A stretch of 44,088 bases of DNA from an uncultured Methylococcus sp. (GTDB lineage Bacteria; Pseudomonadota; Gammaproteobacteria; Methylococcales; Methylococcaceae): assembly GCA_964419105.1 (NCBI GenBank), contig CAYQOJ010000004.1, positions 10,993-55,080 of the forward strand. The letters are read 5' to 3'. The translations under genes and the position numbers were made by a program. This document shows positions 26,679-44,088 of the stretch, piece by piece; the stretch's first letter is position 1, and each line of letters begins with the position of its first letter. The notes beneath the pieces were generated by a model. The model saw only the letters and a list, made by a program, of their open reading frames with translations. It was not told where the DNA came from and made no database searches.

Positions 26679-26751
26679 GCCTTTGTAACTCAGTGGATAG
26701 AGTAGCGGACTTCTAATCCGTTTGTCGCAGGTTCGAGTCCTGCCAGGGGCG
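26679..26751 (+). tRNA. tRNA-Arg (anticodon UCU)
   Basis: Manual cloverleaf. The 7-bp acceptor stem has 2 G-U pairs. D arm ACTC/GAGT with a GG loop. Anticodon stem GCGGA/TCCGT with loop CTTCTAA. T arm GCAGG-TTCGAGT-CCTGC. Confidence 0.85.
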
Positions 26752-26775
26752 CAAGTATTGTGGTATAATCTATTT

Positions 26776-27462
26776 ATGGACTATAATCAAAAAGTAATGG
26801 TATTGAAAAACTTTCTTTTAGAATCTGAGGTTGCTGAATTAAAAGAAGCAATTAGATTGGTCAGGGAGCACAAGCAGCCAGAACATGAGGTCCTAGAGTT
26901 TAAGCATTGGTCCAGAATTAATCACGGGATACATATTCCAGATTCAGTATTCAAAAAGTTTCAAGAAGCAGCATGGCAATACGGAGACCCATCTCTTCAA
27001 TTTACCCACCAAACATCATTCATCTACAAGCCAGAACTTGGGGGAACTACTCAATGCCCTCCACATACAGATGGTCATCAGACACAGTTCTCTATGGACT
27101 ATCAGGTTGAGGCAAATGTGGAGTGGCCTTTGTGGGTAGAGGGAGAAAAGTATGTTTTGCAAGACAATGATGTTTTGATTATGAGTGGAAGAAGCCAGGT
27201 TCACTGGAGAGAAGAAAAGCATTTGCAAGAGGGGGAGTATTGCGACATGTTTATTCTTCACTTTGCAGAGCCAGACTACTTAGACAAGCAGGAAAAGGGA
27301 TTAATACAAAATGCCCCAGAAACTTCTTACAAGATGGCTGAAGAAATGTACAGTCCAACACTTGAAGGAACAACCTTGCAGGGTAATGATCCAGAAGATT
27401 CCAAACCAAATGTTTGCGTCAGCAAAGACCAGATAGATCATTCCCAATGCAGTCACGACTAA
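26776..27462 (+). CDS. Cupin/2OG-Fe(II)-oxygenase-like protein with Cys/His C-terminal tail
   Basis: The start at MDYNQKVMVLKN has TATAAT (26764-26769) 6 nt upstream; the track start at 26722 lies inside the tRNA. PPHTDGH...QVHWREEK suggests HxD...H. It is a paralog of 29846-30496. Confidence 0.6.
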   Translation: MDYNQKVMVLKNFLLESEVAELKEAIRLVREHKQPEHEVLEFKHWSRINHGIHIPDSVFKKFQEAAWQYGDPSLQFTHQTSFIYKPELGGTTQCPPHTDGHQTQFSMDYQVEANVEWPLWVEGEKYVLQDNDVLIMSGRSQVHWREEKHLQEGEYCDMFILHFAEPDYLDKQEKGLIQNAPETSYKMAEEMYSPTLEGTTLQGNDPEDSKPNVCVSKDQIDHSQCSHD

Positions 27463-29845: not shown

Positions 29846-30496
29846 TTAGTGACTACACATAGAATGGTCTACTTGGTCTATACTTAGACAGGTTCCTCGC
29901 TTTATTGGCTTTTGAATTGCCAAGGCCTTTGCCTGTCTAGTATCCATGTCTTCTGGGGAAACGGCAAATTCTCCTGCCTCATATCGCTCTTGGAAATTTG
30001 GAACAGCAAATGCTATGTCAAACATATCCACGAACTCTCCAGGCTGTAATGTTTTTTCCTCACGCCAATGCATTTGGTAGCCACCCGCAAACAGTAAAAC
30101 GTCATTATCTTCTAGTTCAAATCTTTCACCCTCTACGACTAAAGCCCATTTGGTATTTGATTCAACCTGATAATCCATTTGAAGTTGATTTTTGGGGGCA
30201 TCCATATGTGGTGGTAATTGTGTGTAGTCTCCATACTTGATGTCATAACAAAATGAAGCATGGTCAGTTCTTTCTAATTCTGGAGATCCCTCACGATGAG
30301 CCACTTCTAAAAACTTTTTCATAACAGAATCTGGGATTGGAATACTGTGATTAATTCTACCCCACCACTCAAACTTCATCTTCTCCGAATACTGTATTTC
30401 GTCTTCACGTACTTTTCTGATAGCCTCTTTAAGTTCTGCACGCTCTTCATCATTAAGAAGATTCTTTACAATCCTTGGCTTAAAATTAAAGTCCAC
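29846..30496 (-). CDS. Cupin/2OG-Fe(II)-oxygenase-like protein (paralog of 26776-27462)
   Basis: Shared blocks are AELKEAIRKVRE, WGRINHSIPIPDSVMKKF, PPHMDA...QMDYQVE, DNDVLLFAGGYQMHWREEK and the tail CLSIDQVDHSMCSH. Confidence 0.6.
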   Translation of the reverse strand: MDFNFKPRIVKNLLNDEERAELKEAIRKVREDEIQYSEKMKFEWWGRINHSIPIPDSVMKKFLEVAHREGSPELERTDHASFCYDIKYGDYTQLPPHMDAPKNQLQMDYQVESNTKWALVVEGERFELEDNDVLLFAGGYQMHWREEKTLQPGEFVDMFDIAFAVPNFQERYEAGEFAVSPEDMDTRQAKALAIQKPIKRGTCLSIDQVDHSMCSH

Positions 30497-31241
30497 CTAT
30501 TGCCTCGCTGTCCTTAAGGAACATCTGTGCAAATCCATAATTGTGTGCAGATCCAAAATGTTGGCTATCAGCACCAGCAATTAGATACATGTCCCCACCC
30601 TTGTGGTTTTGGATGTATTGATAAATTATTTTTGCTAACTCACGATAGTCTGTTTTATTAAAAGATTCAAATTTATCATCATAAAAATCATTTGCTGTTT
30701 GTATATACCCATCGCTAATATCTTCTATGTCCCATGTTCTTGATATCAATTTGATACCATTTGTTTTGCAAAAATTTTCAAACATTAAGTACATCTGTAT
30801 AGAATGTAGAAGCGCAGAGTTTTTATTTAAATGAATTCCTCTCATTATTTCTGGCAAAAGGAAATATATTTCAGATGGCTTACCGTACTTATTTATATAC
30901 TTCATCGCATTGAAAATAATTTCTGTTGATGCTGCTCCTGGATAAGAGAGGTTAAAATATCCGCTAAGTTTTCTTTTCTTAGATAGTTCATTGTATACTA
31001 TCCATGACCAGGTTTTATCTGCATGAATTCCGCATCCATATGTAACTGAGCATCCCAAAAACAGAACATGCTCCCCATCATGATCCTCCTTAAACTCATC
31101 AGACCTAAATCCTAAAGAATTTAGAGTATATTTTACTCCAGCGGGCATCTCATATTCTCTGGATGGATTAATGGTAAAGTCGTATGGACTTTTGATATCT
31201 AAAGATATTGAATCATATGGGTATGGTCTGGCTAATGGCAT
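30486..31241 (-). CDS. SGNH/GDSL-like hydrolase-fold protein (paralog 1 of 3)
   Basis: GFRSDEF...HVLFLGCSVTYGCGI (block I, with GCS in place of GDS) and GADSQHFG (a DxxH-like block V). TATAAT (revcomp, 31248-31253) lies 6 nt upstream of the ATG. Confidence 0.55.
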   Translation of the reverse strand: MPLARPYPYDSISLDIKSPYDFTINPSREYEMPAGVKYTLNSLGFRSDEFKEDHDGEHVLFLGCSVTYGCGIHADKTWSWIVYNELSKKRKLSGYFNLSYPGAASTEIIFNAMKYINKYGKPSEIYFLLPEIMRGIHLNKNSALLHSIQMYLMFENFCKTNGIKLISRTWDIEDISDGYIQTANDFYDDKFESFNKTDYRELAKIIYQYIQNHKGGDMYLIAGADSQHFGSAHNYGFAQMFLKDSEAIGGL

Positions 31242-32567: not shown

Positions 32568-33055
32568 TTGGACCTACCATCTAGTTTATGAGTTACCCAA
32601 AAATACTTGCATCCGTCACAGCATGGCATATTGTCTTTGCTATTTACGGCATAGGCAAAAGTGTTATAGAACTCTGGATCTTTTTTGTATAGATTGGCAC
32701 GATGGGTTGTAGTTACAAGCCTCATTATTGCTGAATTTTGATACCACTGAGGAAACTCTTTGCCCCACCAATCACCATTTACTGATACAAGACCACGAAT
32801 ATTTTCTTCATTCTTGTCAGTCTTAATGCCACGCTTTTTAGCCTCATCAACCATAGACATAACATATGTATGCAAGATTGACTCAGCACCACGCCACATC
32901 TTTACGGCAGGATGATTGCGCCAACCAGCAAATGGGTCATCACTAGATAGAACCTTCAGAATTTGATACCCCTCAAGTACCTGCTTATTGAGTCGCTTAG
33001 AATCTAGCATGCTTGCTGATGTAGCAAAACTCTTAGACGGCAAGAACGTTTGCAT
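32561..33055 (-). CDS. Pyrimidine-dimer-DNA-glycosylase-related (MSMEG_6728-like) protein
   Basis: MQTFLPSKSFATSASMLDSKRLNKQVLEGYQILKVL...GWRNHPAVKMWRG matches the recalled MQTFLPY.dF..SA..LD..RLgKQR...HPa..MW pattern of that family. Confidence 0.5.
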   Translation of the reverse strand: MQTFLPSKSFATSASMLDSKRLNKQVLEGYQILKVLSSDDPFAGWRNHPAVKMWRGAESILHTYVMSMVDEAKKRGIKTDKNEENIRGLVSVNGDWWGKEFPQWYQNSAIMRLVTTTHRANLYKKDPEFYNTFAYAVNSKDNMPCCDGCKYFWVTHKLDGRSKW

Positions 33056-33291
33056 TATTCTTCTACTCCACCTTCTCGTACCAAAAGTACGATAGCCCCA
33101 TTATCCTCAAGGGCCTTCTTGACCCTCACCATATATTCTACAGCATTACGCTTCTCTTCGTCAAGTAGGGACATGAATTGTTTTTCACTAGCCTTTACAG
33201 TCAAAAAATGATCATGATCAATAATCTGAAGAGAGAAGCCCTTTGGCGCTCTAATAGAGTGGAATGCCATTTTCATTGCATCTGTATACAT
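33055..33291 (-). CDS. Hypothetical protein
   Basis: 78-aa ORF with start and stop overlaps in the operon. Confidence 0.55.
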   Translation of the reverse strand: MYTDAMKMAFHSIRAPKGFSLQIIDHDHFLTVKASEKQFMSLLDEEKRNAVEYMVRVKKALEDNGAIVLLVREGGVEE

Positions 33292-33518
33292 TATTTATCC
33301 TTATTCATACTATCAGTGATTCTTCCCCACTGTATATAATTCCAGCCACGCTCATGAGTATAGTATACAAATATCTTAAGAACAGTTTCCCAGAATGCTA
33401 TGATTCCAGACAACGCTGCACTTCCAGTAATTATATATACCACTAAAAATGAAGATAGGGTACCCCAAATCCTATAACTAAGAGCCTTTACAAATGATCT
33501 ACTTCTTGTTACTTTCAT
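33291..33518 (-). CDS. DUF2061-like small membrane protein
   Basis: The start at MKVTRSRSFVKALSYRIWG was chosen. The YYTHERGWNYIQWG motif is paralogous to 36921-37121 (YYGHERAWTKFG). Confidence 0.55.
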   Translation of the reverse strand: MKVTRSRSFVKALSYRIWGTLSSFLVVYIITGSAALSGIIAFWETVLKIFVYYTHERGWNYIQWGRITDSMNKDK

Positions 33519-33568
33519 GGAAGTATATCCTCTCTTCTGCTTCGGCAATCTTATTCTCAAACAAAATA

Positions 33569-34330
33569 CTATAGACCAAGTTCTTTGCGCTTCTGAGTAG
33601 CCGATATAGCATGAATCTCTGCCCCCAAATCTACTTGTTCGATTTTATAACCAACATCTCTACCATACACAATGTTAGTAATGTTTGGAAGCCTTACCAC
33701 CAATGTGTCTTTGAATATATTTCTGTTATTTTCAAGTATTCGATCTCTAACTTGCGTATAAGTAAGCGGATCTTTTTCCGAAGTTCCATAAGTATTTCTC
33801 ACACCTACTAGCACCTGACTAGTTCTTTTGTGAGCCTCCTCCTTCAATGCCTGATGCCCCTCATGCCATGGCTGATATCTACCAAGTTGCAGGGTACATG
33901 GCGCAGACCAGTCAAACAGATTACCTGCCTGAATAACTGTATCCACTTCCTGTTCTATTGTATACCCATCTAGAATACGAATATCAAATTTGGTTGGCTC
34001 TTGCCACATAGCATTTGTGTCTTCAAATCTCCCAGACTTGATTCTATCAACCCACACAAGAAGGTCTGGCTTTCCAAAAGCATTTCTTGTTTCTTTAGTT
34101 GGACATACAAAATCTACGACTACAGTATTGCCTTGATTAGATAAAAGTTTTGATATCTCTCCAAGTCTTCTGGCATGCTCAACCCTATCCGAAACATCAA
34201 AGCCAAGATCACTATTGATGGTTGCTCTAACCTCATCGGCATTTAGGTGTATAGCATTGATCCGTTCTTTCAATGCCTTTGCCAATACGGTTTTTCCCGC
34301 ACCTGGCAACCCAATAATCTGTATAATCAT
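33569..34330 (-). CDS. Fusion: APS-kinase-like domain plus cytidylyl/adenylyl-transferase-like (HxGH, ISxT) domain
   Basis: N-terminal: GLPGAGKTVLA...LNADEVRATINSDLGFDVSDRVEHARRLGEISKLL, compared with the APS kinase pattern LDGDNVR..LN.DLGFS..DR.ENIRR.GEVAKL. C-terminal: LGRYQPWHEGHQAL (the GxFxPxHxGH motif) and HAISATQKR (ISSTxxR-like). Confidence 0.7.
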   Translation of the reverse strand: MIIQIIGLPGAGKTVLAKALKERINAIHLNADEVRATINSDLGFDVSDRVEHARRLGEISKLLSNQGNTVVVDFVCPTKETRNAFGKPDLLVWVDRIKSGRFEDTNAMWQEPTKFDIRILDGYTIEQEVDTVIQAGNLFDWSAPCTLQLGRYQPWHEGHQALKEEAHKRTSQVLVGVRNTYGTSEKDPLTYTQVRDRILENNRNIFKDTLVVRLPNITNIVYGRDVGYKIEQVDLGAEIHAISATQKRKELGL

Positions 34331-34342
34331 TTACTTCCCAAT

Positions 34343-34636
34343 CTATTTGTCCATTGTTAGTGACTGCCACTTTTCAGCCCACTGAGCCTTGCTCCTGTGT
34401 TTATTGAACTCTCTAGATATTGAACCATCCTCTAGATAAATTCCGCCCCACACGCCCCATTCTTTTTGAGACACTCCAACCGCAAAACACTGTCTTGCAA
34501 CTGGACAATCCGAACAGAGTTTGTCTATTGCTGGTCTTAAGTTTAGGTCGTCTTCATATTTATCAAAAAATAAATTAAAGTCGTAGTCTTTACAGGAGGC
34601 ACGATTTTTCCATTCGTGTCTGTTCATGGGGGTCAC
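34343..34636 (-). CDS. whiB: WhiB-family Fe-S transcription factor
   Basis: Four Cys (C-x26-CSDCPVARQC) followed by the GVWGG turn. Confidence 0.85.
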   Translation of the reverse strand: MTPMNRHEWKNRASCKDYDFNLFFDKYEDDLNLRPAIDKLCSDCPVARQCFAVGVSQKEWGVWGGIYLEDGSISREFNKHRSKAQWAEKWQSLTMDK

Positions 34637-34863
34637 ATCCCAAATTTATTTGGAATATCCCAGCCCTGTTGGGTAGGCTCGTAACGTTTACGAATGATCC
34701 ACTTACCATTTACATATGCACCATCAATTGAAGTTGCACCATTGAGATTCTTTCTGTCCTCTAGAACAGTCCATCCATCCCAAGACAAAGCAGAGTGCTT
34801 ATCTACAATCTGCTCCATTTTTTCTAACGAATTAACTAGCATAGTTACTCCTTTGTTTAACAT
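34633..34863 (-). CDS. Hypothetical protein (alternative start at 34842)
   Basis: 76-aa ORF with an ATGA-type overlap to whiB. Confidence 0.55.
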   Translation of the reverse strand: MLNKGVTMLVNSLEKMEQIVDKHSALSWDGWTVLEDRKNLNGATSIDGAYVNGKWIIRKRYEPTQQGWDIPNKFGM

Positions 34864-34865
34864 TT

Positions 34866-35216
34866 TTAATACCTATATACCCCAACATCAATGTCGTGCT
34901 GTTCTGCGACATCAACTAGTCTTGACACTGGCTCCCTTGGTTTACTAAAAAATGCAAAGTATTCCATATCAGACATGTTTTCTTCTAGCCACCCAGGAGG
35001 TACACGAATAAACTTAATCTTCTTCCCTAGACCCTTCAGAGATCTTTCTGTAATATTAGTAAAAGCAATCCCCATGTTGTTAATAATGTGTGGACCTGCA
35101 GAATAGATGGTTATCTCAGTATCATCATTCTTAAGTCCAGACAGGGCAACACCCATTGCTCTCAAAAATACGTTGTAATCTGAGAAGTTACGGGTTCCTT
35201 GAATCCCCACTCTCAT
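34866..35216 (-). CDS. Hypothetical protein (Rossmann-like?)
   Basis: 116-aa ORF. No function is assigned. Confidence 0.55.
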   Translation of the reverse strand: MRVGIQGTRNFSDYNVFLRAMGVALSGLKNDDTEITIYSAGPHIINNMGIAFTNITERSLKGLGKKIKFIRVPPGWLEENMSDMEYFAFFSKPREPVSRLVDVAEQHDIDVGVYRY

Positions 35217-35619
35217 TTGGTAGTCCTTCCGTTAGTTTGTCTACAATGAACGATATCTTATCTAATTGTACCTTATCCATAGACATGGTGTCAACTATTT
35301 TTGCTGTTTCTTTTTGCACCTCATCACCAGCAGTAACTTCTGCGGTATACAGGCTGTGGTTATGTATCCAATATGCCATTCCATCAAATATGATTACTCT
35401 TTTTTGTGACCTAAGTCTTAGATCCATAGACTGAGTACTCTTGAGTCTACGCAACTCTGTATTGGTTGGAAGAAATGGTTTAACTAATGAAAACATGCCA
35501 CTTTGGCTATACTTAACCCCAACAAATGTTTTTACGTGTTCAGAGACAGCCCTAGAGGCATACTTTGACACAAGAAACATTGTTATCAGAGTTACTATAG
35601 ACCCAAGAAAATATTCCAT
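35188..35619 (-). CDS. N-terminally anchored membrane protein
   Basis: 143 aa with a TM helix (FLGSIVTLITMFLVSKYA). Confidence 0.5.
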   Translation of the reverse strand: MEYFLGSIVTLITMFLVSKYASRAVSEHVKTFVGVKYSQSGMFSLVKPFLPTNTELRRLKSTQSMDLRLRSQKRVIIFDGMAYWIHNHSLYTAEVTAGDEVQKETAKIVDTMSMDKVQLDKISFIVDKLTEGLPNESGDSRNP

Positions 35620-35639
35620 ATATATCCCTAAATATTATA

Positions 35640-36005
35640 CTACTCATCTGCGGACATGAGTCGTATAATCTCCTTTAGGCTATACCACTGGTCTCTCTTT
35701 AAACTCCTAGTCTTTGTTTCATCTAATGCCTTTTCTGTTAGCCTTACGGTTGGATTTGACTCTGTTATGTCCATCTCTATAAAACCATTTTCCCAAAGAA
35801 ACATCATTTCTTTATAGAAATAATTTGACATGTCCTTATGAAGTGCTGGAGAAAATTGTGCTAGTTTTTCTGTAAAAGTATATAGTGGCTCATTGGTCTC
35901 CAGATCAATTCCAACAACCTCTACTGCTCCATTAAGGATTAACTCTTCTAAAAACTTATCTTCTTCACTGGTCACTTTTTGCCCTCTGCTTTGCAAGAGC
36001 ATCAA
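35640..36005 (-). CDS. Hypothetical protein
   Basis: 121-aa ORF. Confidence 0.5.
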   Translation of the reverse strand: MMLLQSRGQKVTSEEDKFLEELILNGAVEVVGIDLETNEPLYTFTEKLAQFSPALHKDMSNYFYKEMMFLWENGFIEMDITESNPTVRLTEKALDETKTRSLKRDQWYSLKEIIRLMSADE

Positions 36006-36372
36006 AGTCCTTTACCTTTGTATCTCCAAGATACCCCCAAGCATAACCTTTTTCGATCATCTCATGGTTTACGGAATTGCCATCTCCATCCAGGTAAAGC
36101 CATCCAAGTATTCTTCCATACTTCTCAGAACTATCAAGTTTTTCAGTCTTAATAACAATATTTTTGGCAGCCTTTAGTCTATCAGTTAAATATTTTTTAG
36201 ACTCAAGTCCAAGAGCCTTTTCTTTTTTATCTGAAGTTCTAGACTCTGGGGTGTCAATGCCAGCCAATCTAACTCGTGAGGCATACATGATACTAAAACC
36301 TAGATCAATTACAACATCGATTGTATCTCCATCTACGACTTTAGTAACTTCTTTAACAAAATACTCGTACAT
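35965..36372 (-). CDS. Staphylococcal-nuclease (SNase/thermonuclease) family nuclease
   Basis: VVDGDTIDVVIDLGF...VRLAGIDTPE...KYGRILGWLYL are SNase hallmark blocks. Confidence 0.8.
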   Translation of the reverse strand: MYEYFVKEVTKVVDGDTIDVVIDLGFSIMYASRVRLAGIDTPESRTSDKKEKALGLESKKYLTDRLKAAKNIVIKTEKLDSSEKYGRILGWLYLDGDGNSVNHEMIEKGYAWGYLGDTKVKDFDALAKQRAKSDQ

Positions 36373-36617
36373 TAGTTTTCACTTCCTATAAGTCTATTCT
36401 CGACAAGCCTATCTCGCTCGTCTGTAATTTCAAATGCAAACTTCATCATTGCATCATATCCCACGGCATTATCCATAATTTTATTATAGTGGTGGGCACA
36501 GAATGTTAGTTCTCCAGAAACCCCTTTAACCATTACGTATGCTTGTGCAGAGCATCCGCCATTATCGCATCTATCAAGTGCAGTAAGCGTCCACTCTTTT
36601 TCTACCATTGTGCTCAT
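36372..36617 (-). CDS. Cys/His-containing hypothetical protein
   Basis: 81 aa with CDNGGCSAQAYV...FCAHHYNK. Confidence 0.55.
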   Translation of the reverse strand: MSTMVEKEWTLTALDRCDNGGCSAQAYVMVKGVSGELTFCAHHYNKIMDNAVGYDAMMKFAFEITDERDRLVENRLIGSEN

Positions 36618-36629
36618 AATTATACCCTT

Positions 36630-36812
36630 CTATTTACGGTTGTCTGTTTTATAAAAACCGCTACCATTAAAAGTAACTGCTACAGCAGAGTATACACGAT
36701 TTAACTTATATCCGCAAGTCTCACATAGATACTCTGGTTCAGGTGCGGAGATTGATCTCTCTTTTGTTACCTGTGAATCACAATTAATACAGGAGTAATC
36801 ATAGGCTGGCAT
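36630..36812 (-). CDS. FmdB-family zinc-ribbon protein
   Basis: MPAYDYSCINCDSQ...YLCETCGYKL is a CxxC-x(n)-CxxC arrangement with the typical MP.YdY.C start. Confidence 0.7.
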   Translation of the reverse strand: MPAYDYSCINCDSQVTKERSISAPEPEYLCETCGYKLNRVYSAVAVTFNGSGFYKTDNRK

Positions 36813-36921
36813 TCTTATTTTTCTTTTTCTCTTTCACATACCATATTGGTAAATTAAGATTGTCTCCAGACCACTCATAGCCAAGTGCCTTTACGACAAA
36901 TCTAATAATCTTAATTCTCAT
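36799..36921 (-). CDS. Possible 40-aa basic peptide
   Basis: MRIKIIRFVVKALGYEWSGDNLNLPIWYVKEKKKNKNASL. The ATG overlaps the upstream stop. Confidence 0.3.
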   Translation of the reverse strand: MRIKIIRFVVKALGYEWSGDNLNLPIWYVKEKKKNKNASL

Positions 36922-37121
36922 TATGCAACATTCCTTCCAAATTTGGTCCAAGCACGTTCGTGCCCATAGTATATTATACTCTCTACAAGCGTTTGTGTCA
37001 AGGAGAGGGCGACAGCAGCAACCCAATTTCCAACAAAGAAATAGGCCACTACTGCCACCATAGCGATATTGACTATATACCAAGATACAGACTTATATAC
37101 GCTTCTTCTCCTTGACTCCAC
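36921..37121 (-). CDS. DUF2061-like small membrane protein
   Basis: RSVYKSVSWYIVNIAMVAV...ESIIYYGHERAWTKFG. It is a paralog of 33291-33518. Confidence 0.55.
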   Translation of the reverse strand: MESRRRSVYKSVSWYIVNIAMVAVVAYFFVGNWVAAVALSLTQTLVESIIYYGHERAWTKFGRNVA

Positions 37122-37786
37122 TACTCAGCCACCATAGGTTTCGATGCGGTGGATACTTTTTGTGCAGCCTTTGCAGGTTTCTTTGCAGGAGCCTTTTTAA
37201 CTGCAGGTTTTGGTGTTTTTGGTCTTGCCCCATGAACTGGAGCAGGAGCAACTGGTGCAGTCTTTGGGGTTGCAACAGGTGCTGCCTCCCTAACAGACTC
37301 CATAGCCATGAGTGCTTTTGCAAACTCAATTGGCTCCACAAAGCCTCTGCCATCATCAGTCCATCCGTGGGTTTTACCCTTCCAGATTTCCCAGTGCAAA
37401 TGCTTCCCAGTTGATGCTCCGCTAGTACCCATTTTACCTAAAACTGTACCAGCCTCAACTTTATCACCAACTTTAACCTGAAGAGATCCCTTGAGCATAT
37501 GTGCATACAAAGATGTGTAGTAATCTCCACCAATCATATGACGAACGGTTACATAGTATCCAAAACCGTCTGGCTCTCCGTTAGACTTCTTCAGTTTAGA
37601 TGGTCCCGCATGAATTACAGTGCCCTTGTAGAATGACTCTACGTAGCACGGCTCTTTGCTAGACCATAGGTCGACACCATTATGGTGTCTTTTCTTTTTT
37701 GTTATTGGATGGACTCTCCAACCAAAAGGAGACGTGATCTTGAAATTTTTTCCAAGTTTCCCGTCTATCGGTAATTGAACTTTCAT
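37121..37786 (-). CDS. M23-family metallopeptidase (endolysin component) with polycationic tail
   Basis: The start at MKVQLPIDGK follows an AAGGAAAAAA RBS. HHNGVDLW gives HxxxD and GKHLHWEIW gives HxH. The C-terminal tail is PKTPKPAVKKAPAKKPAKAAQK. Confidence 0.8.
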   Translation of the reverse strand: MKVQLPIDGKLGKNFKITSPFGWRVHPITKKKRHHNGVDLWSSKEPCYVESFYKGTVIHAGPSKLKKSNGEPDGFGYYVTVRHMIGGDYYTSLYAHMLKGSLQVKVGDKVEAGTVLGKMGTSGASTGKHLHWEIWKGKTHGWTDDGRGFVEPIEFAKALMAMESVREAAPVATPKTAPVAPAPVHGARPKTPKPAVKKAPAKKPAKAAQKVSTASKPMVAE

Positions 37787-37793
37787 TTTTTCC

Positions 37794-38423
37794 TTACATA
37801 ACTTGCATAGGCTTACCACCACCAGCAGATTTCTTTGCTGGCTTCTTAGCAGCCTTTTTTGCTGGCTTTGGTGCCTCTGCCTTATTAAGCAGTGGCTGAC
37901 CCTCTTCACCAACATAAACAGGACGACCCCAACCAACGACACCGTTGATTAGTTTCTTCTTGTTATTCTTGACGTATGCACGTGTCTTTTCAACACACAT
38001 TCCGCCATTTCTCTGGTCACCCTTTGCGGTACCAGAAGTGTTACCCTCAATAACCTGAATGGTTCCGTCACCATTATTCTTAATACAGATTCCAACATGA
38101 GAGATTCTGTTGACCCCATCTTCAGGAAAATCAAAGTAGATCCAGTCTCCTGGTGTAGGGTCATCGTTACGAGCATCTGCCCATCGATTATTCTTTTTAA
38201 ACCAATCAGATGCAGCCACAGTCGACGCTGACTTTGGATACTTCTTTGGATTTAAACCTGCGGTGTGTGCACACCAAGACACAAAAGATTGGCACCATGG
38301 CTGGAAGTTTACACCAGTCCACTTACCATACTTTGTTTCATTATCTTTTGGACCCTCAATGGTTCCAACTTCTTTTTTGGCAACCTCAATGATTGATGCT
38401 ACCGTTCCTTTTGCTGCGTTCAT
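37794..38423 (-). CDS. CHAP-domain amidase/peptidase (endolysin component) with polycationic tail
   Basis: NFQPWCQSFVSWCAH holds the catalytic Cys region, followed by ISHVGICIK and IEGNTSG. The C-terminal tail is KPAKKAAKKPAKKSAGGGKP. A GGAGG RBS precedes it. Confidence 0.75.
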   Translation of the reverse strand: MNAAKGTVASIIEVAKKEVGTIEGPKDNETKYGKWTGVNFQPWCQSFVSWCAHTAGLNPKKYPKSASTVAASDWFKKNNRWADARNDDPTPGDWIYFDFPEDGVNRISHVGICIKNNGDGTIQVIEGNTSGTAKGDQRNGGMCVEKTRAYVKNNKKKLINGVVGWGRPVYVGEEGQPLLNKAEAPKPAKKAAKKPAKKSAGGGKPMQVM

Positions 38424-38481
38424 GCAACCTCCATTTGTTATTCCACCATAGTGGATATAACCTAATTATACCACCAGGAGT

Positions 38482-38571
38482 TTAGTAGATGTGTCCGTTA
38501 CTCTTTTTAATCTTACGGTACCTTTTTGGATTTTTTAAGATAAACCATATGAGTTTAATAGCCTTTATCAT
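38482..38571 (-). CDS. Possible 29-aa basic micro-protein
   Basis: MIKAIKLIWFILKNPKRYRKIKKSNGHIY, with an ATGA overlap to the upstream gene. It is the same length as the Met-2 form of 41749-41841 and about 30 percent identical to it. Confidence 0.35.
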   Translation of the reverse strand: MIKAIKLIWFILKNPKRYRKIKKSNGHIY

Positions 38572-39446
38572 TTTGTAGCCTCCTTGTAGAATTTATCAGA
38601 TATGAAGTGTGTCCAGCAGGTTCCTGGGTGTGCCCCATCCCTAGCCTCTTCCCAATAGGGGAGGTTGTCTGAGTTTGGGTAATATGGAGAATTGGACTTT
38701 CTGTAGGATGGATTTGCTGGTATAAAGGATGTGTCTGGATCCATTAAATTTTTAAAGCCTAAGTTTTTGTATGTATCGTAGTCAGTATTGTTCCAGGTTG
38801 TCCAAATTAATTTTATGCCAGCCTCCTCACAAAAATCTTCAAGACCAAAAATTAATGTTGTTGCCAGCAGAAGATTATCCTCTGCCTGATAATTTTTAGT
38901 GTATCGCTCCCTGTCCTTATCTTTGCTTCCAATAAATGAAGTGTTTACATATGCCTTAATGTACTCTTCTTGCTTTGGAGAATAGTAAATATTTCTTTGT
39001 ATGTCTGGAAAACATAACATTAAATACTTTGGCTTGCCATATTTTCTAATAAACGAATAAACATTTTTAATTATGTGGTGTATAGACTGACCCATATACC
39101 CCAAGTTATAAAAATCAGTTTCATTCCCAGATTCAGAAAATTTATTAGAAACAAGTCTTGGCCAAATATATTCCTCTGGCAACCCTTCACCAAACGTCCA
39201 AGAGCAACCAGAAAACAGTATAGTGGTTTTATCATTATCAAAATTATCAAAGTGCTTTGATCTAAATCCATGACCATTTATTCTGTAAAATACTGGTGGT
39301 CCATCAACCACAAACCCATGACCTATGTTTTCAGTTATATAATATCCAGAGGCACTAAGAAAACCTTCAGGTGGTAGGTTGGTTCTTGTGTCTAAATGAT
39401 CAAGACTATCATGCGATATAAAACCTCTTACATTATCCGAATACAT
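38568..39446 (-). CDS. SGNH/GDSL-like hydrolase-fold protein (paralog 2 of 3)
   Basis: GFRSKHF...TILFSGCSWTFGEGL, YFNLGYMGQS, KYGKPKYLML and EARDGAHPG (DxxH). Confidence 0.55.
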   Translation of the reverse strand: MYSDNVRGFISHDSLDHLDTRTNLPPEGFLSASGYYITENIGHGFVVDGPPVFYRINGHGFRSKHFDNFDNDKTTILFSGCSWTFGEGLPEEYIWPRLVSNKFSESGNETDFYNLGYMGQSIHHIIKNVYSFIRKYGKPKYLMLCFPDIQRNIYYSPKQEEYIKAYVNTSFIGSKDKDRERYTKNYQAEDNLLLATTLIFGLEDFCEEAGIKLIWTTWNNTDYDTYKNLGFKNLMDPDTSFIPANPSYRKSNSPYYPNSDNLPYWEEARDGAHPGTCWTHFISDKFYKEATK

Positions 39447-39449
39447 TTG

Positions 39450-40883
39450 CTACCTGCATATCTTAAAGTTGTATGTTTCTTCCCACAGCCTAATGTCGTG
39501 ATGATCGTTAACTAGTGGCTGACCTTTAACGTTTAGGCTTGTGTTAAGGAGAATAGGAACGCCAGTCTTTTCATAAAATTTCTTAAGAACTTCATATAGA
39601 CCAGGATGCTGATTGGCATTAACGGTCTGAACTCTAGAGGTTCCGTCATGATGCACTACAGATGGAATTAAGTCTGGCTTTAAACATCTTGGTGTGTATT
39701 GCATATATGGAGATGTGTAGTCCATATCAAACCACTCGCTTGCGTGCTCTTCCATAATAACTGGGGCAAATGGCCTAAACAATTCTCTTTTTTTAATTAG
39801 GTTGACCTTGTCTTTAATGTCTGGGTCTCTTGGGTCTGCCAAGATGCTTCTATTTCCTAACGCTCTTGGCCCATACTCAGCCCTTCCCGTAGCAACAGCG
39901 ACAATCTTATTAGCAAAAAGACCTTCAAGAATTTGATCTACTGGATATTGTCCACCAAGATCGTGACCCAGGTATGGACCTTCCCAATCAACATGTTTTC
40001 CATATAATGCAGCAGCAGCACCTAGTGATGAGCCTGCATCTCCTGGATTTGGCATAATCCATATCATATCAAAGATATCCCATAGCAGTGTATTGGCTGA
40101 TGCATTAAGAGCGCAACCACCCATAAAAACTAGGTTCTTCTTTCCAGTCTTATCTTTAGCATACTTCATAAACTCTATCATTCTACGCTCATACACCAAC
40201 TGTGCTGAGGCTGCAATATCAAATTTATCTTGTTCAGTTATTTCTAGTCCCCAGTCGTCAATGCCTTTATGAAAATTATACCTTTGTTCATTTATGCCTG
40301 GAAAATATCTATTTACTTTTTCAAGATATTTATTTGGGTCTCCATATGCAGCCATGCCCATCATAATATATTCTTCTTCGTTTGGTTTTAGCCCAACCAA
40401 CTGGGTAAAGGCAGAATAAAACAATCCGAAACTAAATGGGTAGTTGTGCTTTTCTATAGGGGTTATCTTGTCTCCAACACCAACCCATATCGTAGAAGTA
40501 TTCCATTCTCCTATTGCATCTAAAACAACAATAACTGCTTCGTTAAAGTTACTTGTATAGTACCCTGCTGCTGCGTGAGAGTAATGATGAGAGAAGTTTG
40601 TTCGTGGAATATTTCTTAGTTCCGTCTGCTCAAAGAATGGTTTTCCACCACCAAATCCACCAAAGAATTTAAGTCTAGTCTTTTTAAGCCATGGCTTTTC
40701 ATAGTATGCAATTTGATCTGGGTATCCATATCTTAGCAAATCATTCATGAGTGAGTGGTTATTAAACCAATCATTTTTTTCTTTACTGTATCTTTCTGAG
40801 TGCCCAGCAAAAAGAATTTTTCCATCTTCAATAAGTGTCATAGATGCGTCATGAGTTGTCTCATTTATACCTAGAATCTTCAC
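39450..40883 (-). CDS. NodU/CmcH-family carbamoyltransferase
   Basis: MKILGINETTHDASMTLIEDGKILFAGHSERYSKEKND is the typical N-terminus. Length (477 aa) and the GGCALNASANT and GDAGSSLGAA blocks fit the family. Confidence 0.85.
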   Translation of the reverse strand: MKILGINETTHDASMTLIEDGKILFAGHSERYSKEKNDWFNNHSLMNDLLRYGYPDQIAYYEKPWLKKTRLKFFGGFGGGKPFFEQTELRNIPRTNFSHHYSHAAAGYYTSNFNEAVIVVLDAIGEWNTSTIWVGVGDKITPIEKHNYPFSFGLFYSAFTQLVGLKPNEEEYIMMGMAAYGDPNKYLEKVNRYFPGINEQRYNFHKGIDDWGLEITEQDKFDIAASAQLVYERRMIEFMKYAKDKTGKKNLVFMGGCALNASANTLLWDIFDMIWIMPNPGDAGSSLGAAAALYGKHVDWEGPYLGHDLGGQYPVDQILEGLFANKIVAVATGRAEYGPRALGNRSILADPRDPDIKDKVNLIKKRELFRPFAPVIMEEHASEWFDMDYTSPYMQYTPRCLKPDLIPSVVHHDGTSRVQTVNANQHPGLYEVLKKFYEKTGVPILLNTSLNVKGQPLVNDHHDIRLWEETYNFKICR

Positions 40884-41748
40884 GATTTTTCTCCCATTCC
40901 TGTATTGCTACTTTAGACCAATATAAATTATACCCTAATCCGTAGTGACTTCCATCTCTAGCAATCACAAAATAATCTGTATTATCATTATTTAAATAAA
41001 GCCACTTCTGCATATCTTCTGATTTAATTGACACAAAAGTTTCAAAATTCATATTTTTGAAAAACTGCTGTACTGTCTCAAACCCACTATCAAAATTATC
41101 AGACTTCTCTATGTCCCAAGTAAAAGAAATTAAAAGAATGCCATTATCTTTGCAGTATTTTTCTAACATCATGTAGTAGTCATACATTACTAACCTGATA
41201 ACTTCATAATTTCCTTTATCATATTTTACTGTGCATGCAGTTTTTCTTATCGGATCAAACCCATAAAATCGTGACAACTCTGTCAGATGCAAGAAAATAA
41301 CATCTGGCTTTCCATAACTTTTAATATACTTATAGATATTTGATATCATGTCTAGGTTAGATCTTCCAGGCAAACCAAGATTAAAGTATCCAGAGCATGG
41401 AGTTATAGAATTAATATGGTTATAGACTATTTTTGACCACATCTCTTCTTTTTCCAATCCTTCTCCAAATGTATTTGAGTCACCCAGAAAAATAATATGA
41501 TATTTTTCATTGTGGTCATTAGTCAACTCATCTGACCTAAAACCAAGGGAATTAATCTTATCTGCATACGGTTTCCATCTTTTTAGGTGAGACTCTAGAA
41601 CAGTCTCAGACATGGTACCAGAAAATGCCAAAACTAAATCTTCATCAATTGCTGGAGTTATTTTTGCTCTATCATACGAAAGAGGACCCCAAGGACTATA
41701 CCTTACAGAATCCCCGTTGGTATCCTGATACTCAACTGGGGCAGGCAT
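40861..41748 (-). CDS. SGNH/GDSL-like hydrolase-fold protein (paralog 3 of 3; canonical GDS)
   Basis: GFRSDEL...HIIFLGDSNTFGEGL, YFNLGLPGRS, SYGKPDVIFL and IARDGSHYG. Confidence 0.6.
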   Translation of the reverse strand: MPAPVEYQDTNGDSVRYSPWGPLSYDRAKITPAIDEDLVLAFSGTMSETVLESHLKRWKPYADKINSLGFRSDELTNDHNEKYHIIFLGDSNTFGEGLEKEEMWSKIVYNHINSITPCSGYFNLGLPGRSNLDMISNIYKYIKSYGKPDVIFLHLTELSRFYGFDPIRKTACTVKYDKGNYEVIRLVMYDYYMMLEKYCKDNGILLISFTWDIEKSDNFDSGFETVQQFFKNMNFETFVSIKSEDMQKWLYLNNDNTDYFVIARDGSHYGLGYNLYWSKVAIQEWEKNREDSRYK

Positions 41749-41841
41749 TTAGTATATAAACTTTCTCTTCTTATCTATTTTTTTCATTTTTCTAATCCAG
41801 AAAAACATTTTAATATTAGTATAGATCTTTTTTATCATCAT
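41749..41841 (-). CDS. Possible 30-aa basic micro-protein
   Basis: MMIKKIYTNIKMFFWIRKMKKIDKKRKFIY. ATGA overlap upstream and TAAATG junction downstream. Confidence 0.35.
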   Translation of the reverse strand: MMIKKIYTNIKMFFWIRKMKKIDKKRKFIY

Positions 41842-42503
41842 GCTTCTCCAGTAGACTTAATGGGTGTATGCATATTGTGGTACCAATGTGGCATGGAATA
41901 TCTGGTGCCACTTTTAATTTCTGCAACCTCATGAACATACAAAAAGTTTGATGGGAAGTAGATGATGCTTCCAGCCTCTGGCTTAATAGAAATTCCAGAA
42001 TTTTGAAATATCATTTCTCCACCCTCATAGTCGTCGTTTAGATACATTACTGTAGAAAGAACTCTACTACTTACTCCATGATCTTGGTGTGCTGGCAGAT
42101 ACCCTCCCTTTTCATATCTTAGCAAGTGAATACTAAACTCTCTAGACTTAATGTTTTCCCCAGCAAATGGATAGATTTGTGTTGTGTAGTGTGCAGTTGC
42201 CCTATCTAAAGCATCATAGAGTCTTTTAGACACATACTTTCTTTCCTTTGCATAGTAGTCGTTATCTGATATGTCGTGCTCTTGTGGGAAGAATTTTTGC
42301 CAACAGAAGGTTTGCTTGTTCTCTCCATGTCCATATTCCCATGGAACCCAGTCAACTTCAGACGTGTAAGCGGAGCCATGCTCTTCCTTAGAAAATCTTT
42401 CATTGGTGTTATTGATAATATCAATAATTTCTTGTGGATTCTCTACAGCATTTTTATAATATACAAGGCCAAGGTCTAGTATTTCGTAGTCAAGTTCTTT
42501 CAT
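41838..42503 (-). CDS. Prolyl 4-hydroxylase-like 2OG-Fe(II) dioxygenase
   Basis: LPAHQDHG...STVMYLNDDYEGGEMIF...GSIIYFPSNFLYVHEVAEIKSGTRYSMPHW. Confidence 0.8.
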   Translation of the reverse strand: MKELDYEILDLGLVYYKNAVENPQEIIDIINNTNERFSKEEHGSAYTSEVDWVPWEYGHGENKQTFCWQKFFPQEHDISDNDYYAKERKYVSKRLYDALDRATAHYTTQIYPFAGENIKSREFSIHLLRYEKGGYLPAHQDHGVSSRVLSTVMYLNDDYEGGEMIFQNSGISIKPEAGSIIYFPSNFLYVHEVAEIKSGTRYSMPHWYHNMHTPIKSTGEA

Positions 42504-42509
42504 GTCTTC

Positions 42510-43115
42510 TCACTTCTCGTTATTCGGATGATCTTGTGCTGCCCACCTAGATGTCTCTTCTGCTGAATGAAAGTCTGGATCAGCAAAATTAGGAATACTT
42601 GTGTGCATATATAGTGCTGTATATCTGTGTCCACTTGTTACCGTTGTTATTCCATGGATATATTCAGAGCCAGCGCTTGGGAAAAATACAGCAGAATATT
42701 TTCTTGGCTTATATTCAAAATCTTGATTTGGGAAATAGATTACCCCACCCTCATAATCAGCGGGATCACTTAAATATATAATCGTGCTCCACTCAATAAA
42801 AGGTTCTGGATCTTGAGCATCTAAGTGTAGGCCACCCTTGGTTCCAGCAAGCCAGTGAGACCCAAACCCCTTAAATACGTATATTGGGTTGACGAATCCA
42901 TTCTGCTCTTTATGAACCTGATTAGACTTAAGCCCATACTTAATCATAATGTCCATAACCGTTTTATTGTATGGTAATGACGTACCGCCATATCTTTTGG
43001 CATAGTATTCTGGGTATGGATTTCTTTCAGCGTTTGGGTCATTCTGCTGATCGATTAGAGTCTGTGCATCCTCTGGTGTTATGAAGTTATCTATAATGTG
43101 TATTCTGTGTGTCAT
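42510..43115 (-). CDS. Prolyl 4-hydroxylase-like 2OG-Fe(II) dioxygenase
   Basis: GLHLDAQ...STIIYLSDPADYEGGVIYFP...SAVFFPSAGSEYIHGITTVTSGHRYTALYM. TATAAT (revcomp, 43122-43127) lies 6 nt upstream of the ATG. Confidence 0.75.
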   Translation of the reverse strand: MTHRIHIIDNFITPEDAQTLIDQQNDPNAERNPYPEYYAKRYGGTSLPYNKTVMDIMIKYGLKSNQVHKEQNGFVNPIYVFKGFGSHWLAGTKGGLHLDAQDPEPFIEWSTIIYLSDPADYEGGVIYFPNQDFEYKPRKYSAVFFPSAGSEYIHGITTVTSGHRYTALYMHTSIPNFADPDFHSAEETSRWAAQDHPNNEK

Positions 43116-43133
43116 AGTACTATTATACCCTAT

Positions 43134-43988
43134 CTAGTAAATTGCCTTTGTAACTGCAGCAAATTTTCTTGCATCAACTTGCTGAAATGCCATTTTGTTG
43201 GGGTCATATTCGACATCCTGGTTTGGGAATGGCAGCCTCTTTAGATCATGAATATTAATCTTGTGAAACTCTAAGAACTGGTCTGTGGTTCTAATACCCT
43301 CAGTTGTTCCAACACCAGCCCTAATAAGATCAATGGCGCTATTGTAGTTGTGGGTTATAGAGTATGGACAATATAATGTCTCAATTGGTCTAAGTTTATA
43401 ATCAGAATATATCCTTGTTGGAGCAGACCAGATGTCTATGCCACCTTTAAAGAACTTCAAACTGAGCAACTCTTCTTCTCCATGATATTTTATAAAGGTG
43501 GGGTATTGTGCATTTACAAAATGCTCTCTTTTGCCAAAAATAAAGTTTCTATCGACATACTGACTTAGGTTAAACCATTCTGAATCAAAGGATTGTATTC
43601 CCAAAAAATACTTATCCTTTTGAACCACACTTCTTTGCCCTGAGCCAGAAACGATTATGTCCCTGTTATCAATAAAAGATATTAATTCTTCATCCCATCC
43701 TGGACTTAACAAAATATCATCTGATACTATTGCCACATACTCTGACTGAACAAGGCTAATTTCATTTGCTTTATATGCACATGGGCTATCTATAAAGTCC
43801 CAAAAGATGTGTCTATAAAAAAATCTTTCAGACTCTGGCAAAATATTTTTACTACGTATTAGTGGGTGCTGATCAATTACTAAAACCGTAAAATCATTTT
43901 TAGTATTATTATTAATCGTATCAAGAACGTTCTTAAGGAATTTGCCTTTATAAGAATAAATAATTATAGATATGCTATTATTCGTCAT
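43134..43988 (-). CDS. Glycosyltransferase (GT-A fold, distant paralog of 27447-28478)
   Basis: ISIIIYSYKGKFLKNVLDTINNNT..FTVLVIDQ and VAIVSDDILLSPGWDEELI give a DxD-type motif followed by GWD. Confidence 0.55.
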   Translation of the reverse strand: MTNNSISIIIYSYKGKFLKNVLDTINNNTKNDFTVLVIDQHPLIRSKNILPESERFFYRHIFWDFIDSPCAYKANEISLVQSEYVAIVSDDILLSPGWDEELISFIDNRDIIVSGSGQRSVVQKDKYFLGIQSFDSEWFNLSQYVDRNFIFGKREHFVNAQYPTFIKYHGEEELLSLKFFKGGIDIWSAPTRIYSDYKLRPIETLYCPYSITHNYNSAIDLIRAGVGTTEGIRTTDQFLEFHKINIHDLKRLPFPNQDVEYDPNKMAFQQVDARKFAAVTKAIY

Positions 43989-44073
43989 CGTGGTTTACAT
44001 CCTCAGACCGTTTGCCTACCAATCCGAATAACTTTTTCCTCCATGCAGTTTTCTTATAGTATCCAAACAGCAT
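43978..44073 (-). CDS. Possible 31-aa basic micro-protein
   Basis: MLFGYYKKTAWRKKLFGLVGKRSEDVNHDDE. It overlaps the glycosyltransferase start by 11 nt. Confidence 0.3.
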   Translation of the reverse strand: MLFGYYKKTAWRKKLFGLVGKRSEDVNHDDE

Positions 44074-44088
44074 AGATCGTCTTGCCTC

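Follow-up and report, generated by a model that had tools for sequence, protein, structure and literature searches.

What does a compact set of modification genes carried by a phage act upon? We examined this question for an operon on the minus strand of a 44,088-nt stretch of DNA from an assembly of an uncultured Methylococcus sp. (GCA_964419105.1, contig CAYQOJ010000004.1, positions 10,993 to 55,080; hereafter the window). The operon encodes a glycosyltransferase (GT2), two 2-oxoglutarate (2OG)-Fe(II) oxygenases resembling prolyl 4-hydroxylases (P4H; OXY1 and OXY2), two SGNH-fold proteins (SG1 and SG2), a carbamoyltransferase (CT) and two microproteins (m2 and m3). The window is phage DNA: it has genes for a collagen-like tail fibre and a tRNA-Arg, genes of endolysin type and numerous matches to PHROGs. 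A first-pass annotation had identified the enzymes as a GT-A glycosyltransferase, two P4H-like oxygenases, two SGNH-fold proteins and a NodU-type carbamoyltransferase, all of which agreed with our Pfam, AlphaFold/Foldseek and motif analyses. It had also suggested that the target could be a virion protein, a host envelope glycan or peptidoglycan; we found nothing that points there, and the conserved core of these loci is instead a microprotein and an SGNH protein, with or without the carbamoyltransferase. We put it at slightly better than even odds that lytic phages of several bacterial phyla carry a new peptide system, composed of a Tyr-ended cationic microprotein, its own SGNH family and a TobZ-type carbamoyltransferase, which would yield either a new class of peptide that is made by the ribosome and then modified after translation (RiPP) or an O-carbamoyl-tyrosine shuttle.

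Tyrosine-ended microproteins and their SGNH-fold partners

A pattern scan of IMG/VR with the alignment of the SGNH family of SG1 and SG2 (the SG family) recovered 353 contigs encoding a relative, and 80 of these loci were inspected. Homologues of m2 were found at the same position in contigs L007, L004 and L008 and in ~30 IMG/VR loci, and the counterpart of m3 in L007, a syntenic contig with orthologues of the cluster genes, was 72% identical. The resulting microprotein family had 38 distinct members of 25–33 aa, which were lysine-rich and amphipathic with a net charge of +7 to +13. The isoelectric point (pI) of m2 was 10.6 and that of the microproteins ~10.7, with no transmembrane (TM) segment; the cluster enzymes were acidic (pI 5.2–6.2), likewise lacked TM segments and were predicted to be cytoplasmic. 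A terminal Tyr formed part of the peptide search pattern. Preceding it, position −2 was Ile in 30 of the 38 members and Val in 6 (36/38 together), position −3 was Phe in 24, Tyr in 11 and His in 2 (37/38 together), and Trp never occurred in the tail.

All 38 peptides were encoded on the SGNH strand, each abutting an SGNH-family gene, and most had their stop codon within −10 to +10 nt of the SGNH start or began at the SGNH stop. A second peptide subtype, starting at the stop of an SG2-clade gene, was present in L007, L010, L015 and L016, such that peptide subtype followed SGNH clade. Some loci encoded several copies (three in L082, two each in L026 and L032). Independently of the search pattern, short upstream open reading frames (ORFs) abutting SGNH starts carried the terminal motif, and among small, basic open segments [FYH][IVM]Y ends occurred in 33 of 601 lying on the strand of the SGNH gene and in 0 of 104 lying on the opposite one. 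The pooled pN/pS was 0.42 (0.06–0.34 for close pairs), and the peptides are thus under purifying selection, which we read as a sign that they are translated and constrained. Judged by this conservation, m2 and m3 are real genes belonging to one microprotein family, rather than the basic junction-filling micro-ORFs of the first-pass annotation, which had counted three. The third, "m1" (43978–44073), is no micro-ORF, as no start closes off its frame before the window ends; it corresponds to the C-terminal part of a gene of 243 aa in L007 (913–1644) and 257 aa in L010 (2304–3077). Full-text literature searches, which included the genome paper of Ralstonia phage RsoM2USA, turned up no account of the peptide family, the module or DUF6065.

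The close abutment of peptide stop and SGNH start at most loci would also fit small functional proteins or regulatory leader peptides that are not enzyme substrates, such as upstream ORFs (uORFs) stalling at poly-Lys or FIY, activators of an HslV-like protease or cationic lysis-accessory peptides. Their lysine-rich, amphipathic character is in keeping with such roles, as is the fact that, of the 34 peptide-positive loci, 16 have an HslV-like peptidase gene immediately upstream and 18 a CHAP gene near the peptide-SGNH pair. Nevertheless, m3-type copies lie downstream of the SGNH gene, with unrelated genes after them (CHAP here, 230–246-aa proteins in L015 and L016) and the whole peptide is under purifying selection, both of which speak against a uORF; no HslV homologue is encoded within the window; and the association with the carbamoyltransferase would be left unexplained. 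We therefore regard a non-substrate role as improbable, while the microproteins are quite likely to serve the SGNH proteins and the carbamoyltransferase as substrate or partner.

The SGNH partners themselves were recognised by structure and by conserved motifs. SG1 and SG2 were 28% identical (E = 5e-25); neither matched PHROGs or NCBIfam, and the Pfam model Lipase_GDSL scored SG1 at 13.7 bits, under its cut-off of 23.6, and did not match SG2. The AlphaFold model of SG1 (predicted local distance difference test, pLDDT, 80.6; predicted template modelling score, pTM, 0.83) had a flavodoxin-like alpha/beta/alpha fold. Foldseek matched this model to EstA, TesA, CrmE10, PAF-AH, CgnD and PatB with a probability of ~1, E values of 5e-5 to 5e-3 and template modelling (TM) scores, normalised to the target, of up to 0.66, and also to phage models labelled "SGNH_hydrolase". 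Among these, CgnD (8a2n) ranked fifth (E = 6.6e-4, TM score 0.48), and PatB (7tjb) matched at E = 4.9e-3. Across 155 family representatives, block I (F-x-G-[CD]-S-x-T-x-G) retained G89 and S91 in 100%, and block V (D-x-x-H) retained D265 and H268 in 97% each. No block III Asn (GxND, oxyanion hole) was conserved ~60 residues past the Ser in these representatives; that region has P/T-[DE]-x-x-R instead, with R160 in 99%, and N123 (96%) precedes block II. The SG family is a distinct SGNH family for which the profile libraries searched (Pfam, PHROGs, NCBIfam) hold no model.

An exhaustive profile search returned thousands of relatives overall, with 469 clusters at 50% identity at E ≤ 1e-30; the mere 8 relatives of SG1 obtained by a word-indexed protein search were a sensitivity artefact. 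A tblastn search of SG1 against 50,697 phage records gave no match, and no SG relative emerged when 185,579 genomes of bacteria and archaea were scanned with two patterns, both scans being of low sensitivity.

The carbamoyltransferase, its loci and the accessory enzymes

By family, CT is a predicted ATP- and carbamoyl-phosphate-dependent O-carbamoyltransferase, with Kae1-like N-terminal and YrdC-like C-terminal domains and a His-rich metal motif, HHYSH (HHxxH type), at residue 99. Its closest solved relatives were the natural-product O-carbamoyltransferases NovN, GdmN and TobZ (E = 4e-57 to 1e-47). CT scored 169 bits against the NodU equivalog, for which the cut-off is 1000, and is therefore no NodU orthologue. 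Its orthologue in L007 was 87% identical and that in RsoM2USA, the best match in a cultivated phage, 46%.

Inspection of the related loci distinguished two kinds, class A, in which CT joins the peptide-SGNH pair, and class B, with a lone SGNH gene. CT was present in 21 of 34 peptide-positive loci compared to 5 of 49 peptide-negative loci (Fisher P = 8e-7, kinship between loci being ignored). Class B loci, which made up approximately half of the retrieved SGNH-family loci, had more distant SGNH genes located between recombination and terminase genes; they encoded no microprotein and no carbamoyltransferase, and no ORF with the terminal Tyr motif was found in them, the neighbours c12, c24 and p9507 included. 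The window contains a third SGNH paralogue (30486–31241, minus strand, 251 aa; family hidden Markov model (HMM) E = 4.4e-70, no Pfam match) with no adjoining microprotein or carbamoyltransferase, which resembles the stand-alone class B copies beside terminase genes.

The accessory genes of class A loci varied and included those for P4H-like oxygenases, GT2, a DUF6065 pair, the HslV-like peptidase, an S8 subtilase that is secreted, and proteins of the radical SAM/SPASM type; the subtilase, radical SAM/SPASM and DUF6065 proteins are of kinds usual in RiPP clusters. In L015–L033 and L051 (e.g., L016 3773–4303; L018 4524–4745 and 4757–5635), the peptide-SGNH-CT core was preceded by an HslV/proteasome-beta-like peptidase, by a conserved acidic protein of 61–73 aa (…FEIWLxNGIERGW…GGDPCQ) and at times by an S8 subtilase with a signal peptide, and was followed by HSP20 genes. 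Radical SAM/SPASM genes were located 1.5–2 kb downstream of the core in L004 (14795–17807, three in tandem) and L015 (8226–9221), which may hint further at peptide-maturation chemistry in these phages.

The module also extended to named viruses. RsoM2USA has an unannotated 36-aa ORF, MIQKLVNWLKSFFVKEKTEAEKIRDQIRKQDPFIYK, ending in …DPFIYK (L001 7026–7136, equal to MG752970.1 125891–126001, minus strand), which exactly fills the gap between the SGNH-like genes RsoM2USA_201 and RsoM2USA_200, upstream of the carbamoyltransferase gene RsoM2USA_199; the SGNH assignments there were marginal (E about 0.003) and are supported by position and motifs. Marine virus AG-345-D19 encodes …KLRKSDPYIYEE, ending in …DPYIYEE, just upstream of its carbamoyltransferase gene. 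The module thus occurred in actinophage-like contigs from fresh water that encode WhiB, in a jumbo phage of Ralstonia and in a virus of marine origin. The "Nol-like carbamoyltransferases" of Kyanoviridae (S-CAM1, S-CAM8, P-RSM6 and HTVC008M) were homologous to CT at 28–32% identity and often lay near 2OG oxygenases; no SGNH-family gene and no FIY microprotein occurred within 5 kb of the Kyanoviridae or pelagiphage carbamoyltransferase genes, and the Kyanoviridae enzymes are probably a functionally different branch.

A different target for CT is suggested by a phage/metavirome TobZ-like carbamoyltransferase that carbamoylates 5-hydroxymethylcytosine (5hmC) in DNA and dNTPs (Yang et al. 2021, PMC8670742). 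That enzyme, a 63-kDa protein, co-occurs with a thymidylate-synthase-like dCMP hydroxymethylase and nucleotide-metabolism genes (PMC8670742); CT is phage-encoded and of the same Carbam_trans_N/C superfamily, but co-occurs with SGNH genes and Tyr-ended microproteins. By this precedent, CT could turn 5hmC into 5-carbamoyloxymethylcytosine, with the oxygenases and GT2 acting on nucleobases, and a weak match of OXY2 to Tet_JBP (19.8 bits, under the cut-off of 34.9) and a dCMP-deaminase/MafB19 gene 4.7 kb away in L007 point in the same direction. The L007 gene, however, has no counterpart in the window, and the oxygenases are of P4H type, not TET type. No thymidylate-synthase-like (ThyA-like) gene was found among the ORFs of the window, which is part of a genome, or by tblastn in the window or ~95 loci, and no dCMP hydroxymethylase was present in the window or the fetched loci (the rest of the phage genome being outside the data). 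DNA hypermodification would moreover give no role to the microproteins or their SGNH partners, and CT has 477 aa compared to the 63 kDa of the tested enzyme. We consider this explanation very improbable.

GT2 has a DD motif at residues 90–91 and a 66% identical orthologue in L007, and was found in 8 of 83 related loci. OXY1 and OXY2 are paralogues in which the H-x-D...H iron triad and the 2OG-binding Arg are kept (H97-L-D99, a distal His and R164-Y-T in OXY1; H139-Q-D141 and R201-Y-S in OXY2), the best solved relatives of OXY2 being Bacillus anthracis prolyl 4-hydroxylase and PiuC. Most peptide-SGNH-CT loci lacked GT2 and the oxygenases, which form an accessory tailoring set around a conserved core of peptide and SGNH (± carbamoyltransferase).

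This distribution bears on the proposal of the first-pass annotation that a virion protein, host envelope glycan or peptidoglycan is hydroxylated, glycosylated and carbamoylated or acylated, read here with no part for the micro-ORFs. The enzyme families fit such a pathway, lysis enzymes adjoin the operon, and the GPX/GXK repeats in the collagen-like tail-fibre protein of the window could be hydroxylated by P4H-like enzymes; in mycobacteriophages, phage glycosyltransferases are known to glycosylate virions. The proposal nonetheless passes over the most conserved feature, the microprotein-SGNH pairing, and GT2 and the oxygenases are missing from most peptide-SGNH-CT loci. There are also no sugar-nucleotide genes in the operon, and all of the proteins are predicted to be cytoplasmic. 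As written, it appears decidedly improbable.

A candidate peptide-modification pathway

A short conserved candidate precursor gene under selection beside modifying enzymes, as is characteristic of RiPPs, was found here, and the closest parallel is crocagin. The crocagin precursor of Chondromyces crocatus, CgnA, is a 21-aa peptide whose leader is rich in Lys and Arg and whose C-terminal core reads Ile-Tyr-Trp (PMC10070186). The 2OG dioxygenase CgnC beta-hydroxylates this core (Adam et al. 2023, PMC10070186), the "putative esterase" CgnD (Ser79/Asp325/His328) frees it and CgnI carbamoylates it, and related clusters carry glycosyltransferases (PMC10070186). The phage loci share with crocagin a predicted basic leader and predicted three-residue aromatic C-terminal core with Tyr, a 2OG-Fe(II) dioxygenase, a D-x-x-H esterase fold, a NodU/TobZ-type carbamoyltransferase and a glycosyltransferase. 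The crocagin-type parts (basic leader, 2OG dioxygenase, Ser/Asp/His esterase-fold protein and carbamoyltransferase) all occur in this one cluster, as an analogy of parts and not as whole-cluster homology.

We favour a crocagin-like processing scheme encoded by a phage RiPP-like cluster, to which we assign a rough probability of 0.45. It is favoured because four enzyme types and the precursor architecture match crocagin biosynthesis, and because a peptide-SGNH core that stays constant while its tailoring enzymes are exchanged, often with S8 and radical SAM/SPASM genes on its flanks, is a pattern that typifies RiPP families. According to this scheme, the basic N-terminal part of the microprotein would be a leader that docks on the acidic enzymes (pI 5.2–6.2), and the C-terminal tripeptide would be the core. 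The oxygenases would hydroxylate the core, probably at a beta-carbon as CgnC does in crocagin, CT would use carbamoyl phosphate and ATP to O-carbamoylate the new hydroxyl or the Tyr phenol, and GT2 may glycosylate the core peptide. The paired SGNH hydrolase would then process the peptide and free its modified C-terminal piece, comparable to the esterase-fold peptidase CgnD, and a small, modified aromatic peptide would thereby arise as the product in the course of infection.

Several observations weigh against this scheme or set the cluster apart from crocagin. The phage tails read F/Y-I/V-Y compared to I-Y-W in crocagin, and their lack of Trp excludes crocagin-type pyrroloindoline chemistry; position −4 is variable (K/R/D/G) and offers no obvious cleavage motif. 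The class-defining crocagin proteins CgnB and CgnE were not among the PDB sequence matches of the tandem DUF6065-like or 217-aa genes that lie upstream of GT2 in L010, and no methyltransferase was found either. The DUF6065-like protein itself gave a poor model (pLDDT 50), with weak and unreliable Foldseek matches to dUTPase/dCTP deaminase-like folds (E > 4e-3). The likeness of SG1 to CgnD is at the generic SGNH level only: the SGNH proteins have no detectable sequence kinship to CgnD, and the SG family profile gave only marginal GDSL matches among PDB sequences, with CgnD absent. In addition, peptide and SGNH protein pair one to one, which is a further difference from crocagin and not usual in a leader peptidase; the cluster showed neither an exporter gene nor an immunity gene; and the existence of class B loci without a peptide means that the SGNH family is not intrinsically peptide-dependent. 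Finally, crocagin is made by a myxobacterium and the cluster described here belongs to a lytic-type phage.

A further parallel for carbamoylation of a ribosomal peptide is StdF, in which a NodU-like carbamoyltransferase is fused to an S8 peptidase, from the Streptomyces std RiPP cluster (PMC13174530). As predicted here, the phage module would have in common with StdF a NodU-type carbamoyltransferase whose target is a ribosomal peptide and which is coupled to a C-terminus-trimming hydrolase. In StdF, the group modified by N-carbamoylation is a Lys epsilon-amine and the subtilase is fused, whereas the phage loci have a separate SGNH protein and a conserved terminal Tyr.

The same terminal Tyr invites comparison with the MBOAT (membrane-bound O-acyltransferase)-SGNH acyl shuttles, in which the invariant Tyr of an FXYXXF motif carries an acyl group to the catalytic Ser of an SGNH partner (PMC12148441). 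This Tyr is located on the microprotein DltX, which feeds DltD, or on the PatA tail FIYANF of N. gonorrhoeae, which feeds PatB, and PatB takes an O-acetyl-Tyr peptide as donor (PMC12148441). By analogy, a loader (CT or another enzyme) could place a carbamoyl or acyl group on the phenol of the terminal Tyr, and the microprotein, as a carrier rather than an end product, could present it to the catalytic Ser of its SGNH partner, which would hand it on to its ultimate acceptor, for example a glycan, a wall polymer or a phage protein that has been hydroxylated and glycosylated; the hydroxylation-glycosylation-decoration pathway of the first-pass annotation could then be the acceptor side. The phage loci resemble the DltX/PatA systems in the F-X-Y half of the motif with its Tyr and in an SGNH partner with a catalytic Ser, and the SG1 model resembles PatB, as its Foldseek match indicates.

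Such a shuttle would better explain the one-to-one, clade-specific pairs and the symmetric peptide-SGNH-CT-SGNH-peptide layout, and peptide-free class B SGNH proteins would be expected of transferases or esterases with an acceptor of their own. Aryl carbamates readily carbamoylate serine hydrolases, and Alb15, a TobZ-type enzyme, carbamoylates the phenolic OH of albicidin, both of which count in favour of a carbamoyl cargo on Tyr. The F/Y-I/V-Y tail matches the F-X-Y half of FXYXXF; its Tyr ends the peptide, except in distant relatives, where K or EE comes after it. The XXF half is absent, and a three-residue match can be chance. No MBOAT or AT3 partner was detected by Pfam, and no cluster protein or microprotein has TM segments, for which reason the membrane-crossing rationale of known shuttles is missing here; the microproteins would also be far too charged to span a membrane. 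The candidate loader would differ from those systems in being a soluble, ATP-dependent carbamoyltransferase, and the cargo in being carbamoyl, not acetyl or D-alanyl. Furthermore, L008, L025, L075 and L077 have a peptide and an SGNH gene with no carbamoyltransferase and no evident loader. Overall, we regard the shuttle as unlikely, though a more serious contender than the non-substrate, decoration and DNA explanations, and continue to prefer the crocagin-like scheme. With neither CgnB/CgnE nor Trp, and neither an MBOAT protein nor the XXF half-motif, the cluster lies outside both known families.

What would be new about the locus is that phages follow a known RiPP-like or Tyr-shuttle logic with an SGNH family and a microprotein family that are both new. 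If the microproteins are modified, they would represent a widespread virus-borne ribosomal-peptide pathway in virulent-type phages, as the SGNH family is found on at least 353 IMG/VR contigs. This would give a first functional context to one branch of the "Nol-like carbamoyltransferase" genes, which phage annotations have long contained, and to an SGNH family that has no model, as well as to DUF6065 and to a class of unannotated genes of 25–36 aa. Either mechanism, if true, would be new chemistry: a carbamoylated, hydroxylated or glycosylated aromatic tripeptide in one case and, in the other, a soluble Tyr-based carbamoyl shuttle that would parallel, in the cytoplasm, the chemistry of DltX and PatA. 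Because RsoM2USA, a Ralstonia phage in cultivation, has the module, the question is open to direct testing.

Layout, extent and surroundings of the operon

The six large ORFs were found in the ORF table of the window, all on the minus strand, at exactly the coordinates given in the first-pass annotation, and the tight packing that it described was borne out, with the genes separated by gaps of 0–18 nt or overlapping (Table 1). Synteny likewise extended to other phage contigs (L007, L021, L068, L075, L077 and L078). An AAGGAGG sequence lies 7 nt upstream of m3, and GGGAGA precedes CT. Promoter-like and terminator-like matches in the region were not above shuffled expectation, an Rfam scan of 37000–44088 gave no match, and a nucleotide search of the region against the 50,697 phage records gave none. 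From its packing, the cluster could plausibly form a single transcription unit with translational coupling.

Table 1. Genes of the microprotein-SGNH-carbamoyltransferase operon and its immediate neighbours, in the direction of transcription.
Feature	Coordinates	Strand	Length	Support	Junction with the following gene
DUF6065-like/phrog_7084 gene, 3' end, cut by window edge	43978–44088	minus	257 aa in full		11-nt overlap with GT2 start
GT2, family-2 (GT-A) glycosyltransferase	43134–43988	minus	284 aa	PF00535 (Glycos_transf_2) E = 2.5e-7, 31.2 bits vs cut-off 23.3	18-nt gap
OXY1, P4H-like 2OG-Fe(II) oxygenase	42510–43115	minus	201 aa	PF13640 (2OG-FeII_Oxy_3) 31.8 bits	6-nt gap
OXY2, P4H-like 2OG-Fe(II) oxygenase	41838–42503	minus	221 aa	PF13640 61.5 bits	4-nt ATGA overlap (m2 ATG over OXY2 stop)
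m2, candidate precursor/substrate peptide, MMIKKIYTNIKMFFWIRKMKKIDKKRKFIY	41749–41841	minus	30 aa	peptide HMM E = 3.8e-10	0 nt; m2 stop abuts SG1 ATG
SG1, SGNH-fold Ser-Asp-His protein, partner of m2	40861–41748	minus	295 aa	AlphaFold, Foldseek and motifs	23-nt overlap; CT start is GTG
CT, TobZ/NodU/CmcH-type carbamoyltransferase	39450–40883	minus	477 aa	PF16861 (Carbam_trans_C) 183 bits; PF02543 (Carbam_trans_N) 140 bits	3-nt gap
SG2, second SGNH paralogue, partner of m3	38568–39446	minus	292 aa	family HMM E = 5e-71	4-nt ATGA overlap (m3 ATG over SG2 stop)
m3, MIKAIKLIWFILKNPKRYRKIKKSNGHIY	38482–38571	minus	29 aa	peptide HMM E = 3.6e-7	58-nt gap to CHAP gene
CHAP-domain endolysin-like gene, downstream neighbour of m3	37794–38423	minus		PF05257 46 bits and endolysin PHROGs	
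M23 peptidase, downstream neighbour; start probably M53 of listed ORF	37121–37786	minus		PF01551 72 bits	

The operon does not begin within the window. Contig L010, which is 99.3% identical to the window, supplies its upstream part, with a divergent TP_methylase gene followed by genes of 217, 240 and 257 aa and then GT2. L010 thus has three more genes upstream of GT2, for which reason the window does not hold the whole cluster; the cluster comprises at least 11 genes, and the description of the operon as a complete pathway was overstated. The 240-aa and 257-aa proteins are paralogues in phrog_7084 and weakly DUF6065-like. For the parent gene of "m1", the phrog_7084 match had E = 2e-33 and the DUF6065 match was weak; a relative in L022 matched DUF6065 strongly (116 bits). 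NCBIfam and PHROGs assigned no function to the SGNH, 217-aa or DUF6065-like proteins. The divergent gene at the operon start, of the tetrapyrrole-methylase family, lies at 59–757 of L010 (minus strand), just past the end of the window.

Downstream, the listed M23 ORF (37121–37942, minus strand) has a GTG start and overlaps the CHAP gene by ~150 nt; its start is placed at Met53 (37786) because the L007 orthologue has 221 aa and aligns from residue 53. The leftward gene string then continues (32573–37121, minus strand) through genes for two DUF2061 proteins, a Zn-ribbon protein, a DUF7455 protein, an SNase, WhiB (34346–34627), an APS-kinase-like protein and a Pyr_excise protein (T4 endoV-like). 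The first-pass annotation had deduced late expression from the position of the operon next to the endolysin genes, which is unsupported because the whiB, APS-kinase-like, pyrimidine-dimer excision nuclease and SNase genes of the same string are not typical late genes. The WhiB homologue, together with DUF932 and GP88 proteins that are common to actinophages, makes an actinobacterial host likely on sequence grounds. GP88-family and DUF932 proteins are encoded at 11615–12334 and 14566–15666 (both plus strand), the DUF932 protein being ~57% identical to proteins that Streptomyces phages encode close to the left end of their genomes.

The collagen-like tail-fibre protein (3590–4303, minus strand) has a GPQGERGPAGPQGPQGPKGDRGEPGEPGKAGKAGKDGK repeat with Pro- and Lys-rich GXY triplets and is a conceivable substrate of the P4H-like oxygenases and glycosyltransferases of the phage. 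Tailoring-type genes also occur outside the operon, namely a 2OG-FeII_Oxy_3 oxygenase (23991–24611, plus strand, 62.6 bits), a weak oxygenase-like ORF (26722–27462, plus strand, phrog_2954) and a glycosyltransferase (27414–28478, plus strand, phrog_24687). The tRNA-Arg(TCT) gene (26679–26752, plus strand) overlaps the listed TTG start of the ORF at 26722–27462, the true start of which is therefore further downstream.

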